Source: a virus (taxonomy: Duplodnaviria > Heunggongvirae > Uroviricota > Caudoviricetes). Taken from it: a stretch of DNA of 36,816 nt. The notes below the pieces were generated by a model that saw only the letters and a list, made by a program, of their open reading frames with translations, was not told where the DNA came from and did no database searches. How positions within the stretch are numbered: the stretch's first letter is position 1; every line of letters begins with the position of its first letter. The stretch is from positions 1 through 36,816 of IMG/VR virus record IMGVR_UViG_2563366829_000018. One strand, given 5' to 3'. A program made the position numbers and the translations under genes. Of this stretch, positions 11,529 through 36,816 are shown piece by piece.

Positions 11529-13037
11529 TTATTCTTCGGACTGGTCGTCGGTGTGCTGCGGCTCCTGTCGTTTCGTTGCGGCACTGCTGCCTCCTTTATC
11601 ACTGGCCGGATCGGTATCAAATACCAGATCCAGCTTGCGGTTTTCATCAATTTCGGCCTTGCGCCGACGTTTGACATCATCCGGATTACGACCACCAGCA
11701 CGTACCCAATCTGATTCTGTCGCCGCTCCACCACGAATCTGGATTTTCCAGGCCTCAGCCTCCTTAACAGGGTCAATCCACGGCATCACTGGTCCGGAAT
11801 ACACCGCGGTATACAGTGAAGAACGGTCAAGATCGCGGGGTAGCCTGATAACACCGGATGCCACAGCCTGTTTCAGCCAGGCACGATACATCGGGCGGGT
11901 GACGGCACCAATAAACCAGTCCTGCAGGATCAGGTAGCCATCAGTAGATTCAACCAGCTCCTGACGCTGGGCGCTGTAAGTGCCGTTATAGTTGCGCGCT
12001 GTACTGGAAAAACTCAGACGACTGCCCGCCGCCACGGCACGCAACTGACCATTACGAAAAGTTTCAAGGTTAGAATTGGGGCGATCCGACTTCACCATTC
12101 CGATTTCTTCGCCGGGTTTCAGATCGTCGTAAATAATGCCTGGCTGAATGGTAAGCTCGCGTTCCTTATCCTTGCTGCCATTACCATCCGGTTCATAGCT
12201 CTGCCCGTCGCCTTTGCGGATGTACATCCCCAGAGCAGCGGCGATCCTTGCTGCAGTCAGCTCAGAATCTTCATACTCTTTCAGGGCACTGAGGCGGATC
12301 AGCACACCGGACAATAAAGACGTCCCGCGCATCTGGTGCAGACGGCGAACAAATTTAAGATGCAGCATTCGCTCTGCATCCACTTCTTTGGTTTCCATCT
12401 GCCGTCCGGATACAGGACGACTTTTATACACCAGATATTTTTCGGGACGCCCCCAGTCATCAACAAACACGCCCTGATTCAGCCTGTTGCTCTCATCACT
12501 GGTCATGGGAATAAAGTCTGGCTCGAGCGCCTCCAGCCAGAAATGAACACCGGCAGAAGGCGTCAGGCTGTTTATGCGCCCGGAAACCATCTGGGCAAAC
12601 ACCTCACCATCGCGCAGCCAGGTACGCAGCATCAGACGTTCCAGCATCGGACGGGTAAACTGCCCGGTGACTTCCGGGCTGACAGACCATTCACTCCATC
12701 GGGTGCGAATCTCCGCTGCCAGATCACGGGCAATGGCCCCATTGCGTAATACCGGATGTGGCTCGACAATAATCCCGTTTTTCCCCACCACCCGTTCTTC
12801 CAGCTTGTCAAATACACCAATAACCAGATCGTGGTTGTTATCAAGGTAACGGGCCTGCTCACGTAACGACACGGCCCCGTACTGGCTTAACTGGTCGGCA
12901 GTTCGGTTCTCCCGCCGGGCTTTGTGTGTCCGCGTCGTTTTTACGGCCTCATAAGCCTGGATCACCGCACGGGAACGCAGCCTTGCCGCTTTCCATCCTG
13001 GTGAAAAAACGCCAATCACATCATCAAGAATTGCCAT
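11529..13037 (-). CDS. Portal protein
   Basis: 502 aa; position between W and the protease/capsid gene; start overlaps the W stop. Confidence 0.85.
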   Translation of the reverse strand: MAILDDVIGVFSPGWKAARLRSRAVIQAYEAVKTTRTHKARRENRTADQLSQYGAVSLREQARYLDNNHDLVIGVFDKLEERVVGKNGIIVEPHPVLRNGAIARDLAAEIRTRWSEWSVSPEVTGQFTRPMLERLMLRTWLRDGEVFAQMVSGRINSLTPSAGVHFWLEALEPDFIPMTSDESNRLNQGVFVDDWGRPEKYLVYKSRPVSGRQMETKEVDAERMLHLKFVRRLHQMRGTSLLSGVLIRLSALKEYEDSELTAARIAAALGMYIRKGDGQSYEPDGNGSKDKERELTIQPGIIYDDLKPGEEIGMVKSDRPNSNLETFRNGQLRAVAAGSRLSFSSTARNYNGTYSAQRQELVESTDGYLILQDWFIGAVTRPMYRAWLKQAVASGVIRLPRDLDRSSLYTAVYSGPVMPWIDPVKEAEAWKIQIRGGAATESDWVRAGGRNPDDVKRRRKAEIDENRKLDLVFDTDPASDKGGSSAATKRQEPQHTDDQSEE

Positions 13038-13255
13038 CAGAACCTCGCCAGCCGGTACCCGGGATGCCCCCGTCGTCGTGTAATCAGAGCCGCAAGGCGG
13101 CGCTCCCACTCCTGCCGTCCCTGCCGGATCTCAGATAAGTTTTCCATGGTCATCTGCTGACCATTAAAGGTGACGGATTTTCCGTCCAGCACCGCCATTT
13201 CAGCTTCCGTATAACGCTGAATCATGGCTTCGATATCATTCTGGTTCATAACCAT
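13037..13255 (-). CDS. W: Head completion / head-tail joining protein W
   Basis: 72 aa; similar to lambda gpW (C-terminal RRRG.PGY); located between terminase and portal. Confidence 0.7.
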   Translation of the reverse strand: MVMNQNDIEAMIQRYTEAEMAVLDGKSVTFNGQQMTMENLSEIRQGRQEWERRLAALITRRRGHPGYRLARF

Positions 13256-15345
13256 CCTCCGGAAGTCAGCCAGGGGTTAACATCGTCAGTTACTGTTTTC
13301 TTCCGTTTTTGTTTTTTAACAGGCGTGGATACCGGTTCCGGTGAGGGTGACGGTTCGGTACTGTCTGGGACACACTCCAGCCAGGTTTCCCGGCTCGCCC
13401 ACTCCGGTGCATCCGGCCAGCGGATCTTTTCGTATCCATGCAGAATGACCAGCGCCTCGGCATACACCATCAGGTCAAAAGCTTCGTTGGCACCGCGACC
13501 CGGCTTACTCCATTTCCCGTCACTGCTCCGCTCTTCATACGTCAGTTCGTCGTAAAACCAGCTCCCCAGCCAGTCAGGGAAATGCACATAGCCTGGACCT
13601 GGCGAGTCACGCCATAACGCGTTATTCACCCGGTCTTTCAGGGCATCCGTCTGAAGAAGCCAGAGCGGCACATCACCTGCGGCCTGCGCCCGGCGGCCCG
13701 TTCGTCCGGTGTTATCAGGGAATGTACGGCTGATCAGTTTTGCGCGCCGGATGCTGTCGCCCTTAAACAGGTAAATACGTTTACCAAGGCCATCACGACG
13801 GCAACGACGCCAGAATTTATAGGCATTATCAGTGACCCCGTCTTCACCGCCGGAGTCCACCGCCATTGCCATCAGTCGCATTTGTTGAGAAGGATCGGAG
13901 GCCAGCGGCCAGCTTTTATGAAAAACATCCGTCAGCAGGACATCCCAGTCTTCCGGATAGCTGGCCGGATCAATTCGCTGGCTCTCCCCGTCGCAGTCAC
14001 TGCGCAATGACTGCGTGATGTTGTAACGATCAATAATCCAGCGTTCGCCACGGCTGCCATAGCCCGTTACCTGAACCACAAAACGGCGATGACGTCCCGC
14101 CTGCACATCCACTGTCGCCACAAGGAAATTAACGCCATCCGGAACACTGCGGGAAGGAACTGGCTCTGCCCGCTGCTCAAGCAGTTCACTTTTTCGTTGC
14201 TCCATGCTGGCACGAGGAAGATAAGGCAATCCCCAGTCGGTGTTGATAACCGCCCTGAGTGTTTCTTCGCTTCCTGTCGCTTCATACTCCTGTTCTGCAG
14301 TCAGTAATTTGTAAACCAGTTGCGCCCAGGTCTGATACGCAGCAGCTGGCCCTTCCATCCAGAAACTGGCGATACGGGAGCGGCGCGGTTCACCGGAAAC
14401 GTTGCCGTTACGATCAATGACCTGACCTTCACGCAACCAGACTCCTGCACTATTGAGCTCACGCTTTTTCTCCGCAGTGATAATGCCGCTGCAGTGCGGG
14501 CAAAGTAGATACGCCGCCTCACTAGCTTTAAAGGGATCCGGTTCATTACGGTAGCCGGTCATGGCATCCATAGCTGGCTGAAAATATTCACCGCAGTGCG
14601 GACATGGCCAGTACCAGCGGCGGCGGTCACCACGATTGTAAAGGGAAAGAATACCAGTCGTCGGTGGCGCTTCATGAGGCGACTTACGTCGCCATTTGCT
14701 GTCGCAGATGTCACGTCCCGGCGAGCTCTCCACCAGAGTCATCCCGGCGGACATAAATGTGGTGGTACGTTTTGAGGCCAGGGAAAAACCATCACCCTCG
14801 CTGTCGATATTCTCCGGAAAACGGTCGTAATCGGTTAAGGCGACAAACCGGTAATCCGACGACGACATAATGTTGACCGAGGGCCAACCAATTTTAAGGA
14901 ACGAGCCATCCCTGAACGTCTTATCATGGACATTATTGTCGTTACGACGTGGACTCATTCTTTTCTTTACCGCCGCACTGCTTCTGAACGTTCTGTCGAG
15001 GCGCTTTTTAGAATGCTCGCGGGCCTTATCTTCGGTCATCTGCACAACGAGCATGTCCGAAGGATCGCAAACGATGGTATAGACAATCCATCCATCGATC
15101 AGACCAATGGTCTTCCCTGTTCGCGCAGGACCAACAAAAATCACCGCATCGTATTCACGCGATGCCAGGCAGTTCATGGGCTCAATGATGTAGGGTGTCA
15201 GTTCAGGATCCCATGGCACCGAGTTACCAGCCCCCTTGGGAACACGCATGAATTTTTTAACAGCCTCCGAAATCGGCATGCGACGTGGTGGGGAAAATCC
15301 TGCCGATATGTCCCTTCCCAAATTTCGGGCTGATGAAAAACCCAT
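13246..15345 (-). CDS. Terminase large subunit (lambda gpA-like)
   Basis: 699 aa; Walker A VGPARTGKT; AGGAGG RBS 5 nt upstream of the ATG. Confidence 0.9.
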   Translation of the reverse strand: MGFSSARNLGRDISAGFSPPRRMPISEAVKKFMRVPKGAGNSVPWDPELTPYIIEPMNCLASREYDAVIFVGPARTGKTIGLIDGWIVYTIVCDPSDMLVVQMTEDKAREHSKKRLDRTFRSSAAVKKRMSPRRNDNNVHDKTFRDGSFLKIGWPSVNIMSSSDYRFVALTDYDRFPENIDSEGDGFSLASKRTTTFMSAGMTLVESSPGRDICDSKWRRKSPHEAPPTTGILSLYNRGDRRRWYWPCPHCGEYFQPAMDAMTGYRNEPDPFKASEAAYLLCPHCSGIITAEKKRELNSAGVWLREGQVIDRNGNVSGEPRRSRIASFWMEGPAAAYQTWAQLVYKLLTAEQEYEATGSEETLRAVINTDWGLPYLPRASMEQRKSELLEQRAEPVPSRSVPDGVNFLVATVDVQAGRHRRFVVQVTGYGSRGERWIIDRYNITQSLRSDCDGESQRIDPASYPEDWDVLLTDVFHKSWPLASDPSQQMRLMAMAVDSGGEDGVTDNAYKFWRRCRRDGLGKRIYLFKGDSIRRAKLISRTFPDNTGRTGRRAQAAGDVPLWLLQTDALKDRVNNALWRDSPGPGYVHFPDWLGSWFYDELTYEERSSDGKWSKPGRGANEAFDLMVYAEALVILHGYEKIRWPDAPEWASRETWLECVPDSTEPSPSPEPVSTPVKKQKRKKTVTDDVNPWLTSGGWL

Positions 15346-18198: not shown

Positions 18199-18203
18199 GC
18201 ATG

Positions 18204-18235
18204 TAAAAAGGCCCCAACACATGTGCGTGGGGCCT
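18204..18235 (-). terminator. Intrinsic terminator upstream of the lysis cassette (7-bp GGCCCCA stem, then TTTTT on the minus strand)
   Basis: Read directly. Confidence 0.45.
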
Positions 18236-18434
18236 GAGAGTATACATGGTTTCAGTCAACTGCATGGTGCCGTGTGCCTCCCGGTGAATTCAGTACCAGC
18301 ACCTGAATCCGCGATTATCCCATATACCTACTCGCTGATTGCCCCTCCGCACAGGGGGATTCACCATGCCAGTTTCTTTTGACAAACTCCCCGCAAAACA
18401 GACAACTGTCAACCGTCTGAATTGTGAGACATTT

Positions 18435-18459
18435 AAAAAAAGGCCCGCAAAAGCGAGCC
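18435..18459 (-). terminator. Intrinsic terminator just downstream of the tRNA cluster (GGCUCGC-UUUU-GCGGGCC followed by UUUUUUU)
   Basis: Read directly on the minus strand. Confidence 0.5.
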
Positions 18460-18473
18460 GGGAAAAATAAGTC

Positions 18474-18550
18474 TGGCGCGTTGTACTGGATTCGAACCAG
18501 TGACCGATTGCTTAGAAGGCAATTGCTCTGTCCGGTTGAGCTAACAACGC
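18474..18550 (-). tRNA. tRNA-Arg, anticodon UCU
   Basis: 77-nt cloverleaf folded by hand: GCGTTGT acceptor, anticodon loop CTTCTAA, TTCGAAT T-loop, encoded CCA. Confidence 0.85.
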
Positions 18551-18563
18551 AGGGTACAGATAA

Positions 18564-18640
18564 TGGACCACCATCGAGGACTCGAACCCCGCGCAACCAG
18601 CTTCGAAGGCTGGTGCTCTATCCTGATGAGCTAATGGCGG
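18564..18640 (-). tRNA. tRNA-Arg, anticodon UCG
   Basis: 77-nt cloverleaf folded by hand: anticodon loop CTTCGAA, TTCGAGT T-loop, encoded CCA. Confidence 0.8.
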
Positions 18641-18647
18641 TATGTGA

Positions 18648-18723
18648 TGGTGGCCCTTGCTGGATTTGAACCAGCGACCTGGCGATTATGAGTCGCTCGC
18701 TCTCACCACTGAGCTAAAGGGCC
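18648..18723 (-). tRNA. tRNA with CAU anticodon, ileX-like (Ile2 via lysidine, or Met)
   Basis: GGCCCTTTAGCTCAGTGGTGAGAGCGAGCGACTCATAATCGCC...CCA closely resembles E. coli ileX. Confidence 0.85.
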
Positions 18724-19943: not shown

Positions 19944-20075
19944 TTTAAGTTGTGTGGCGAAGTAACCACTCTTAACACACTAATAGCATTTTTGTTATAA
20001 CACAAGTAGCTCATTCAGTATTTTTAGAATCTTGACTTTCTTAAGCACGGCGAACTCTGAATACCAAACATAAAA

Positions 20076-25810: not shown

Positions 25811-26031
25811 GCAGCACCTCCGAGATGCTTCATGTTTTTTCCGGAGCGAAAGGCTATAAGCGGCATACTGACGCGGTAATTACGGCCCAGCGGTTCACAA
25901 ATCACCTTCTGACATTCACGGTCAACCAGGCTAACACGTAGAACATGCCCTGCAGGCGTGGTGTACCACTGACCCGGACGAGGACAACGGAAAGTATGAT
26001 TGGTAAACCGTTTGAAAATATTCCGGATCAT
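25807..26031 (-). CDS. Hypothetical small protein (74 aa)
   Basis: ORF translationally coupled to the O-like gene; no recognisable domain. Confidence 0.3.
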   Translation of the reverse strand: MIRNIFKRFTNHTFRCPRPGQWYTTPAGHVLRVSLVDRECQKVICEPLGRNYRVSMPLIAFRSGKNMKHLGGAA

Positions 26032-27188
26032 TTACGCCCCCTTACCTCTGAAGGGTTCAGCGACAAATTTATGAGACTGGCCAGTAGCGCCGCGTCGTTG
26101 ATGCGGTCATACAGACTTACAGCCAGCGGGGATTCGGCTTTTGCCAACATGGGATAAAGCTGCTGCAGCCAGACCTTGTGGATTACCGACAGGTGGGAGT
26201 AAAGCACGCTGGCGTTATCTGCGGCATCGCTCAGCGTGGATGGCTTTGAAAGCAGTTTTTCCATCTGGTTAAAGGCATTGATGTATGCCTCTTTGAACCG
26301 GGCAGCACGTTTACCCGTGAAACCCATAGCAAGAAACGCAAAACCGTCTCGTGTGATTTGATAGCAAAGGAGCTTGCGTGTACCACCGTTCGGTTGATTT
26401 ACCGAAATCGATGTCTCCGCAAAATTGCGGGCACAAAACTCAGGGGAACAATCCAGAGTGCGGATCTTTTTCAGCACATCGTCGTGACGCTTGGAGAAGA
26501 AGTTGGCAACAGCCAAAGAAGTGGTAACGGCCTGGCCGTTGTCAATGGTGATTTCAGGTTGAGTGAGGGCTGGGATCGTAGCCATGATGGCAGCCTCCGT
26601 TGACAGTGAAAAACTTCCACCACCGGAAACGCCAATTTCACTGGTGGTGAACTGGACGGGGTTGGCGTAACCGGCGTCAACGGAGACCGGCGCACCTTTC
26701 GGTGCCCCCGCCCAGCCCACCATAATCTGGATGTGAGCAAATGCGGACGATAAAAAAGACGCTGGCGCGTCATACATCGCCGTTGACAATTTCAGGACGC
26801 CAATCCCGGCACCCGCTTTATAAGGTGCCTGAACAGTGTAACGTCCCGGAATTGCAGAATCAATATGCTGGTGGTCCTTCACACTCAACAAAATCACGCC
26901 TGAATTTCCACAAAGGACTAAAGCACTCATGCGGGTAGTCTTTGCGAAGATAGATAACGCGCTGTGTTTCTGGCTCCCAACGAATAACATGGACATAAAG
27001 CCCTCTTCCGTCACGAAACCAGCGGTTAAGTTCCTGCACAACTCGCCCCCCACAGTCAGGTAAAGTTCTCTGTGGTTACTTACAGCCAGGTGATTTGGTA
27101 ATCTGCATTCATGCCGTAACAACAGGTGTTCAGCGACGCTGACCACCAGCTGTTGCGACAAACGGTTATTTGCCGTTAAACTATTCAT
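26028..27188 (-). CDS. Rha-family phage regulatory protein with a ~200-aa N-terminal extension
   Basis: Rha-like core (ITIDNGQAVTTSLAVANFFSKRHDDVLKKIRTL) at residues ~210-300; ATGA coupling with the CII-like gene supports the long form; an alternative start at 26585 has a GGAGG RBS. Confidence 0.55.
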   Translation of the reverse strand: MNSLTANNRLSQQLVVSVAEHLLLRHECRLPNHLAVSNHRELYLTVGGELCRNLTAGFVTEEGFMSMLFVGSQKHSALSIFAKTTRMSALVLCGNSGVILLSVKDHQHIDSAIPGRYTVQAPYKAGAGIGVLKLSTAMYDAPASFLSSAFAHIQIMVGWAGAPKGAPVSVDAGYANPVQFTTSEIGVSGGGSFSLSTEAAIMATIPALTQPEITIDNGQAVTTSLAVANFFSKRHDDVLKKIRTLDCSPEFCARNFAETSISVNQPNGGTRKLLCYQITRDGFAFLAMGFTGKRAARFKEAYINAFNQMEKLLSKPSTLSDAADNASVLYSHLSVIHKVWLQQLYPMLAKAESPLAVSLYDRINDAALLASLINLSLNPSEVRGRK

Positions 27189-34302: not shown

Positions 34303-34539
34303 ATGGGCAATGTGATTCAACTGGCTCCCAATGAATGGGTTTGTGAAAGCGTTCTTATCGCAATTACCGGGCTCAAACCAGGCACAATTCTTCGGGCCCG
34401 GAAAGAATGCTGGATGGTTGGAAGAGAGTATATTCACGTATCACCAGACGGTAATCCAAAGCCTTCCAGTGAATGTATGTATAACAGAAAAGCAATAGAT
34501 GCCTGGGTCGCCTCAATGAAAAACAAACAACCCAGGTGA
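34303..34539 (+). CDS. xis: Excisionase
   Basis: 78 aa, immediately upstream of int; resembles e14/DLP12-type excisionases. Confidence 0.65.
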   Translation: MGNVIQLAPNEWVCESVLIAITGLKPGTILRARKECWMVGREYIHVSPDGNPKPSSECMYNRKAIDAWVASMKNKQPR

Positions 34540-34594: not shown

Positions 34595-35908
34595 ATGGAT
34601 AAAGTCAAATATCCAACAGGCGTCGAAAACCACGGCGGCACATTACGCATCTGGTTTAATTTTAAAGGTAAACGTGTCAGGGAAAATCTTGGTGTCCCTG
34701 ACACTGCCAAGAACAGGAAGATCGCCGGGGAACTGCGGACATCAGTATGTTTTGCCATCCGCACAGGAAGCTTTGATTATGCTGCACAGTTCCCTGACTC
34801 CCCCAACCTTCAGGCTTTTGGGGTAAGTAAAAAAGAAATTACGGTGAAGGAACTTGAAGAAAAGTGGCTGGATCTGAAACGAATGGAAATCTCTGCAAAT
34901 GCATTCAATCGCTATGAATCCGTTGCAAGAACGATGGTTCCGAAAATTGGAGGCAGTAGACTGGTGTCATCGGTAACCAAAGAGGAATTGCTGTATATCA
35001 GGAAAGATTTGCTGACCGGGTATCAGAATTCAACGAAAAACAAAGCAGCAGCAAAAGGACGGAGCGTCGTTACTGTAAATTATTACATGACGACAATCGC
35101 TGGAATGTTTCAGTTTGCTGCAGATCACGGTTACTTAGAAGCAAATCCCTTCCAGGGAATTAAGCCTCTTAAAAGAGCCAGGGCAGAGCCAGATCCGCTA
35201 ACTCGTGACGAATTTATTCGCCTGATAGATGCTTGCCGACATCAGCAGACGAAAAACCTGTGGTCATTGGCTGTGTACACAGGAATGCGTCACGGTGAAC
35301 TGGTCTCCCTGGCCTGGGAAGATATCGATCTGAAGGCAGGAACAATTACCATCAGGCGCAATTATACGAAACTTGGTGAGTTCACTCTACCGAAAACTGA
35401 AGCAAGCACAAACAGGGTTGTGCACCTTATCCAGCCCGCTATCAGTGTCCTGAAAAATCAGGCTGAAATGACAAGACTGGGTAAGCAGTACAACATCAAG
35501 GTGCAACTACGTGAATATGGACGTTCAGTGAACCATGAATGTACTTTCGTGTTTAACCCTCAAGTGGTTAGAAAAAGCGAACAGGTAGGTTTTGTCTACA
35601 AAGTCGATTCTGTAGGTGACTCATGGGAAACAGCCATTAAGCGTGCAGGGATCAGGCATCGAAAGGCATACCAGTCACGACACACTTATGCGTGCTGGTC
35701 ATTATCTGCCGGAGCAAACCCAAGCTTCATTGCCAGCCAGATGGGCCATGCAAGTGCCCAGATGGTATTCAATGTATACGGAGCATGGATGACTGACAGC
35801 AATGCAGAACAGATCGCAATGCTGAATCAGAAGCTGACAGATTATGTCCCAATGATGCCCCATAGTCACCAAAGTGACACCAGAGGCTTATTAAAATCAG
35901 TAAGTTAA
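34595..35908 (+). CDS. int: Tyrosine-type site-specific integrase
   Basis: C-terminal catalytic motifs (R...HxxR...Y: MRHGELVSL, YQSRHTYACW, VFNVYG); GGAGG RBS; at the prophage end. Confidence 0.9.
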   Translation: MDKVKYPTGVENHGGTLRIWFNFKGKRVRENLGVPDTAKNRKIAGELRTSVCFAIRTGSFDYAAQFPDSPNLQAFGVSKKEITVKELEEKWLDLKRMEISANAFNRYESVARTMVPKIGGSRLVSSVTKEELLYIRKDLLTGYQNSTKNKAAAKGRSVVTVNYYMTTIAGMFQFAADHGYLEANPFQGIKPLKRARAEPDPLTRDEFIRLIDACRHQQTKNLWSLAVYTGMRHGELVSLAWEDIDLKAGTITIRRNYTKLGEFTLPKTEASTNRVVHLIQPAISVLKNQAEMTRLGKQYNIKVQLREYGRSVNHECTFVFNPQVVRKSEQVGFVYKVDSVGDSWETAIKRAGIRHRKAYQSRHTYACWSLSAGANPSFIASQMGHASAQMVFNVYGAWMTDSNAEQIAMLNQKLTDYVPMMPHSHQSDTRGLLKSVS

Positions 35909-35934
35909 TCCTTAATACCCGTCATGTTAACTGC

Positions 35935-36438
35935 GTGGAGGGCAACACCACGCTTTACGCCCTGCCGAAACCCGAGGTTGTCCTGCGCTGGCGTGAGCAG
36001 ACCACAGATGACTTCCGCTTCTGTTTTAAGTTTCCGGCGACCATTTCGCATCAGGCAGCATTACGGCATTGCGATGATTTAGTGACTGAATTTTTGACCC
36101 GCATGTCACCGTTGGCTCCGCGCATTGGGCAATACTGGCTGCAACTGCCTGCCACATTCGGCCCACGGGAGCTGCCTGCGCTTTGGCATTTTCTCGATTC
36201 TCTTCCTGGCGAATTTAATTATGGCGTGGAAGTCCGCCATCCACAGTTTTTCGCCAAAGGAGAAGAGGAACAAACGCTTAATCGCGGTTTACATCAGCGC
36301 GGCGTTAATCGGGTGATTTTAGACAGCCGCCCGGTTCATGCAGCACGTCCACACAGTGAAGCTATTCGCGACGCTCAACGAAAAAAACCTAAAGTTCCGG
36401 TACATGCTGTACTGACGGCGACAAATCCGCTGATCTGA
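35935..36438 (+). pseudogene. Truncated host gene fragment (possibly yecE, DUF72 family), cut at the 5' end by the prophage junction and at the 3' end by the IS element
   Basis: Reading frame is open upstream into int; stop codon is supplied by the first bases (TGA) of the IS inverted repeat. Confidence 0.45.
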
Positions 36439-36816
36439 ACCGCCCCGGGAATCCTGGAGACTAAACTTCCTGAGAAAGAGGTAAACAGGATGACTAAAAA
36501 TACTCGTTTTTCCCCCGAAGTCCGTCAACGGGCAGTCCGTATGGTTCTGGAAAGTCAGGGCGAATATGACTCACAATGGGCGACAATTTGTTCCATTGCT
36601 CCAAAGATTGGCTGTACGCCGGAGACTCTGCGTGTCTGGGTTCGCCAGCATGAGCGGGATACCGGGGGCGGTGATGGAGGGCTCACCACCGCTGAACGTC
36701 AGCGTCTGAAAGAGCTGGAACGTGAAAATCGTGAACTGCGCCGCAGTAACGATATCCTTCGCCAGGCTTCCGCTTATTTTGCGAAGGCGGAGTTCGACCG
36801 CCTCTGGAAAAAATGA
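36436..36816 (+). mobile_element. IS3-family insertion sequence (IS629/IS1203-like), left end and orfA; continues past the window
   Basis: Terminal repeat TGAACCGCCCCGGGAATCCTGGAGACT followed by orfA. Confidence 0.8.
36490..36816 (+). CDS. IS3-family transposase OrfA (HTH and leucine zipper)
   Basis: [41 protein letters not shown] matches IS629/IS1203 OrfA as I recall it. Confidence 0.85.

Follow-up and report, generated by a model that had tools for sequence, protein, structure and literature searches.

The integrase-side end of a lambda-like, non-Stx prophage in yecE, with an adjoining insertion of IS629

The window analysed here, that is the whole stretch of 36,816 nucleotides, ends with the int-side extremity of a lambda-like, non-Stx prophage located in the host gene yecE, followed by a copy of IS629. 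A prophage of roughly 43 kb was almost certainly integrated in yecE at the sequence TTAACTGCGTG, and IS629 was probably inserted later into the severed gene. The feature belongs to already known biology, combining a known integration hot spot with a common IS. Its components, all of which lie on the plus strand, were the following:

34303..34539 (+): xis, excisionase of 78 aa (Pfam DUF1233, 'putative excisionase', E = 9.5e-33)
34595..35908 (+): int, phiP27-type tyrosine integrase of 437 aa (Pfam domains and likeness to the Int of phiP27)
35855..35862 (+): ATGCCCCA, candidate arm-type Int-binding site in the 3' end of int (repeat encountered only in the att arms)
35878..36438 (+): chimeric open frame composed of phage codons, yecE codons 29-198 and a stop codon from the IS (translation and ORF list)
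35915..35926 (+): phage-side flank of the core, ATACCCGTCATG (phage) versus ATGCCCGCCACT (yecE), 8 of 12 positions identical to yecE (alignment)
35927..35937 (+): att core TTAACTGCGTG, an 11-mer shared by the compared sites, at the int-proximal junction (attL in the convention of lambda and phiP27)
35927..36435 (+): internal fragment of host yecE (DUF72), nt 86-594, approximately codons 29-198 of 272 (100% identity)
36432..36435 (+): GATC, the 4-bp target-site duplication on the left of IS629 (its right-hand counterpart falls beyond the window)
36436..36460 (+): left terminal inverted repeat of IS629, 25 nt (repeat comparison)
36436..36816 (+): left 381 nt of IS629 (IS3 family), with 2 mismatches in 381 to the feature in LC567824.1
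36490..36816 (+): IS629 orfA, 108 aa (Pfam HTH_Tnp_1; OrfA protein 100% identical to that of annotated IS629)

The source of the window was scaffold KE137269.1 of assembly GCA_000408745.1, a draft at scaffold level with N gaps, to which the last 10,882 nt and the first 12,968 nt of the window were identical (100%). Measured from core to core on this scaffold, the prophage extended over ~43.1 kb, a length that is only approximate because a gap of 550 Ns (positions 12970-13519 of the far-end locus) interrupts gene J directly before base 1 of the window. The tail-tip gene J is cut at the window edge by this assembly gap and not by biology; the gpI gene was called as 193 aa in KE137269.1. Head and tail genes of the prophage were lambda-like. 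No stx genes were found in the prophage, and the interval from Q to the lysis genes contained only tRNA genes and STnc100. This slot (18199-18723, minus strand), which is the place where Stx phages carry stx, displayed one tRNA-Met, two tRNA-Arg and the sRNA STnc100. Rfam matches to C4 antisense RNA (81 bits) and isrK (62 bits) were located at 26640-26828 on the minus strand, inside or beside an ORF of the Rha/Ash family (26028-27188), and this region looks like a P1/P7-type immunity-like module residing in a lambdoid prophage.

The host DNA enclosed between the core and the IS was 100% identical, over 509 nt, to nt 86-594 of the 819 nt of yecE from strain NT1F25 and also from other strains, and it matched Pfam DUF72 (E = 8e-34, profile positions 22-156 of 217). 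A megablast search with positions 35880-36440 gave matches in 5,424 of 5,426 complete E. coli genomes, under the annotation 'yecE: DUF72 domain-containing protein'. Intact yecE of NT1F25 is 819 bp long and lies between yecD and yecN-cmoA-cmoB. In KE137269.1, chromosomal yecD adjoined the tail-proximal junction (aspS, further beyond yecD, was seen only in other genomes), while the remainder of yecE followed the IS and was itself followed by yecN, cmoA, cmoB and torZ in their normal order. The gene was accordingly present in three pieces, with nt 1-96 at the far end of the prophage, nt 86-594 in the window and nt 591-819 beyond the IS. A few complete genomes matched only part of the yecE fragment, one of them with an adjacent phage bet gene, and yecE is therefore interrupted elsewhere or by other elements in other strains.

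The core was defined by aligning the window, intact yecE and both junctions of the related prophage from O104:H4 2009EL-2071. The stretch common to the empty site and to both types of junction was exactly TTAACTGCGTG. It occupies nt 86-96 of intact yecE and recurs unchanged at the window junction, at the two junctions of 2009EL-2071 and at the tail-proximal junction of KE137269.1. At this last junction, which is the far end of the prophage, the scaffold read yecD - yecE nt 1-85 - TTAACTGCGTG - ATACGGAATTTTTAAAAATC..., the core being situated 7,163 nt before the first base of the window. The GenBank record of phiP27, AJ298298.1, annotates attL (1-11) and attR (42565-42575), which likewise read TTAACTGCGTG on the int-sense strand. 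The original prediction, made from the window itself, had proposed a prophage-chromosome junction, had tentatively recognized yecE in the host fragment and had called for a matching core at the other prophage end. Each of these proposals was confirmed, since the fragment is identical to annotated yecE with its usual neighbours downstream and the core, found at both ends, equals the att annotated for phiP27. The position suggested for the core, near 35910-35935, overlapped the true one and had to be corrected to 35927-35937. The core is not invariant among lysogens: the int-proximal end of the PhiR49_2 (ECOR13) record, at positions 1-20, reads TTAACTGTGTGGA, where a C-to-T change in the 11 bp leaves the yecE amino acid unaltered.

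When the window was compared with intact yecE by megablast, some matches began at 35915 instead of 35927, thereby including the phage-side flank, which is a probable core-type Int-binding site. The core region of attB lies within an imperfect inverted repeat, GCCCGCCACT / CGTGGAGGGC (8 of 10 positions, by eye). Core-type recombinase sites typically look like this, and the repeat in attB may represent one.

Int displayed the Pfam domains Arm-DNA-bind_2 (E = 9.8e-24) and Phage_integrase (E = 3.1e-18). Its amino acid identity was 100% to the integrase of PhiR49_2 (ECOR13), 95.6% to that of phiP27 and 76.4% to IntR of the O145:H28 Stx phages. The position-equivalent gene to xis in EC2 and in O104:H4 was annotated 'excisionase family protein'. 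The stop codon of int, TAA at 35906-35908, is separated from the core by a spacer of 18 nt only, which is why one att arm falls within the int coding sequence. The repeat ATGCCCCA occurs in this arm as a single copy for the entire 36.8-kb window, 72 nt before the core (start to start). Three further exact copies, in the same orientation, were found 128-176 nt from the far-end core (locus coordinates 19946-19994), and the 20.7-kb far-end locus contained none beyond those three; all four exact copies in the prophage DNA examined sit in the two att arms. The counterpart positions of phiP27 carry either ATGCCCCA or ATGTCCCA, a one-base variant. Judging from their sequence and placement, these repeats would be arm-type Int-binding sites and, together with the arm-binding domain of Int, they would fit a lambda-type attP architecture. 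Scans of 35600-36816 for promoters, terminators and short repeats revealed nothing above chance. We infer that the int/xis/att module is still active.

As had been noticed at the outset, the host-like reading frame remains open upstream into the 3' region of int. Translation showed it to be open from 35878, so that the final 31 nt of int are also covered in a different frame, while its first conventional start is a GTG at 35935 (167 aa). At the junction, the host peptide ...ARHFNCVEG is replaced by ...TRHVNCVEG on the phage side. The calculated chance of 16 stop-free codons upstream of the core is ~46%, and since such runs are common by chance the open frame is a weak clue to the position of the core. 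In prophage-bearing genomes without the IS, PGAP calls a 256-aa 'DUF72 domain-containing protein' (WP_044713004.1), which starts at a non-canonical ATT in the 3' end of int (equivalent of 35890) and overlaps int by 19 nt. Most of the substitutions that distinguish this phage from phiP27 in the overlap are silent when read in the int frame but alter the amino acid in the yecE frame. Since this pattern argues against selection on the fusion frame, the idea of a conserved int-yecE fusion peptide was rejected. Because the stop-free run is unremarkable and the substitutions change the fusion frame, the fusion ORF and the corresponding 256-aa DUF72 call are probably annotation by-products. It seems improbable that, in lysogens without the IS, the prophage supplies a new N-terminus as well as read-through transcription from int and that the resulting shortened YecE (the 256-aa DUF72 protein) is functional; if it were so, the insertion of IS629 would be the event that actually inactivated yecE in the source strain.

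The left end of the IS, TGAACCGCCCC (opening bases TGAACCGCCCCGGG), begins at 36436, where similarity to intact yecE stops, and this position corresponds to the first base of the reference, a feature of LC567824.1 annotated 'insertion sequence: IS3 family IS629'. The complete element in KE137269.1 comprised 1,310 bp, of which 5 differed from this reference, and was bordered by imperfect 25-nt terminal inverted repeats of the form TG...CA, TGAACCGCCCCGGGAATCCTGGAGA / TCTCCAGGAAACCCGGGGCGGTTCA, of which only the left one is contained in the window. On the scaffold, the next frame after orfA, which it overlaps, was an rve orfB of 295 aa; relatives bear the annotation 'programmed frameshift'. The first three bases of the IS, TGA at 36436-36438, constitute the stop codon of the truncated yecE frame. 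The earlier expectation of an IS629-like element of the IS3 family, lying about 500 bp further in the same gene and supplying its stop codon, was thus accurate on all counts, the distance from core to IS being 509 bp and the element being IS629 according to both its nucleotide sequence and its OrfA protein.

GATC was found on both sides of the IS in KE137269.1, versus a single GATC at nt 591-594 of intact yecE. A 4-bp duplication is also annotated for IS629 in LC567824.1, and the target duplications of IS629 have been reported as 3-4 bp (PMC3271280). Megablast matches of the IS extended 13-18 nt into the flank, and another IS boundary or target motif was considered on this basis; it was discarded, as alignment sets the boundary at TGAACC, and the resemblance of the flanks results from ranking or selection among ~30,000 IS copies.

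Given the full-length element, the GATC duplication and the presence of the rest of yecE with its normal downstream genes, a simple transposition of IS629 was retained. IS629 and prophages are both drivers of rearrangements, the IS runs past the end of the window, and E. coli EC2 combines an identical int-yecE junction with a prophage whose other end lies at ompW; these points would speak for IS629 marking an IS-mediated deletion, inversion or other rearrangement, in which case the rest of yecE would not lie beyond the IS. Such an event is nevertheless very improbable and was refuted for the deposited assembly, where the IS is followed by GATC, yecE nt 595-819, yecN, cmoA, cmoB and torZ, and where the 4-bp target duplication is perfect.

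The int-yecE junction was present in 326 of the 5,426 complete E. coli genomes (251-nt query, at least 80% covered). The yecE::IS629 junction was present in none of these 5,426 genomes (junction query, at least 80% covered) and was seen solely together with the prophage. An exact-match scan for the 40-nt yecE-IS629 junction GCGACAAATCCGCTGATCTGAACCGCCCCGGGAATCCTGG gave no match in a collection with one genome per species, a composition owing to which this result says little. Two further contigs that seemed to encode the same 167-aa product ended 2 nt past the site, in sequence of intact yecE (GATCCG); as intact yecE continues there, they provide no evidence for the IS junction. By contrast with these contigs, a unitig assembled independently from run SRR639975 and seen in 4 samples extended 28 nt across the left yecE-IS629 junction and matched the window without a mismatch over 2,235 nt.

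The absence of the junction from all complete genomes, together with the scaffold-level status of a source containing N gaps, in which a repeated IS assembled from short reads could be misplaced, raised the question of a draft-assembly artefact resulting from a collapsed or misplaced repeat. This is highly unlikely, for the SRR639975 unitig reads across the junction in exact agreement with the window and the GATC duplication flanking a full-length IS is the trace of a real transposition.

yecE is a published integration site of Stx phages, first reported for phiP27 (PMC8065619, PMC6256387), and is heavily used as such in O145:H28 (PMC8112680). The Stx2e phage phiP27 (AJ298298.1) resembles the present prophage in the 11-bp att TTAACTGCGTG at both ends, in its Int (95.6% identical), in the xis-int layout with an int stop ~18 nt from the core, and in the ATGCCCCA-related repeats of both arms; it differs in that the present prophage is devoid of stx and possesses head and tail genes that are lambda-like and not phiP27-like. 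The closest overall relative was the yecE prophage of O104:H4 (97.3% over 96% of the last 10.4 kb), and PhiR49_2 of ECOR13 was the closest relative for int only. An integrase with arm-binding and catalytic domains, an adjacent Xis, a short shared core and repeats restricted to the arms are all reminiscent of lambda-type recombination. In contrast to it, this prophage targets a protein-coding gene at a point 86 nt from the start of that gene, which it does not restore; moreover, the int stop is 18 nt from the core, with one arm inside the int coding sequence. The IS itself conformed to IS629 from E. coli O157:H7 and relatives (1,310 bp, OrfA, TG...CA repeats and 4-bp duplication), whereas its site, yecE nt 591-594, distinguished it from known IS629 insertions, being occupied in 0 of 5,426 complete E. 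coli genomes.

The Stx phages of O145:H28 (Nakamura et al. 2021, PMC8112680) which sit at yecE and at 'attB-in-PPompW', share the use of yecE as integration site, but they rely on a different integrase, IntR, and their att is reported to be 21 bp long, as opposed to an identical core of 11 bp here. E. coli EC2 (NZ_CP058571.1) displayed a 100% identical int-yecE junction, while at the tail end of its prophage the place of yecD was taken by an S6 peptidase gene, an IS3-family element and an ompW remnant, a layout which suggests an inversion between prophages or the use of the yecE-like 'attB in PPompW' (PMC8112680). That the yecE-like stretch of the window would be a phage-borne copy or an 'attB-in-prophage' segment, and not a prophage end, is extremely improbable: ompW prophages do contain 100-bp yecE-like segments with an internal attB (PMC8112680), but these are ~87% identical over 100 bp, versus 509 bp at 100% here, and the chromosomal genes on both sides (yecD; yecN-cmoA-cmoB) refute this possibility.

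Under the preferred reading, namely integration of the prophage in yecE followed by insertion of IS629, a phiP27-type integrase would have catalyzed site-specific recombination into the 5' part of chromosomal yecE, with strand exchange taking place within the 11-bp core (yecE nt 86-96). On this core assignment, attP would read ...ACCCGTCATG-TTAACTGCGTG-ATACGGAATTT.... IS629 would later have transposed into the already severed gene at nt 591-594, in the orientation of yecE and with duplication of GATC, after which its terminal TGA would end the residual yecE frame. The anatomy of the region, both junctions, the core, the identity of the IS and the target duplication can be read directly in the DNA. 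We infer that the prophage came first and the IS second because the yecE::IS629 junction was seen solely with the prophage, and the insertion fits that of an IS into an already dead gene.

The only particular feature is the position of IS629 (yecE nt 594); its absence from 5,426 complete genomes makes it a lineage-specific marker, usable for strain typing and of little wider interest. The exact end of the prophage is now fixed by the core at 35927-35937, which matters little beyond annotation. yecE is doubly disrupted in the source strain, so that excision of the prophage would not restore the gene, and the insertion described here is a further example of IS629 accumulating in DNA already inactivated by a prophage.
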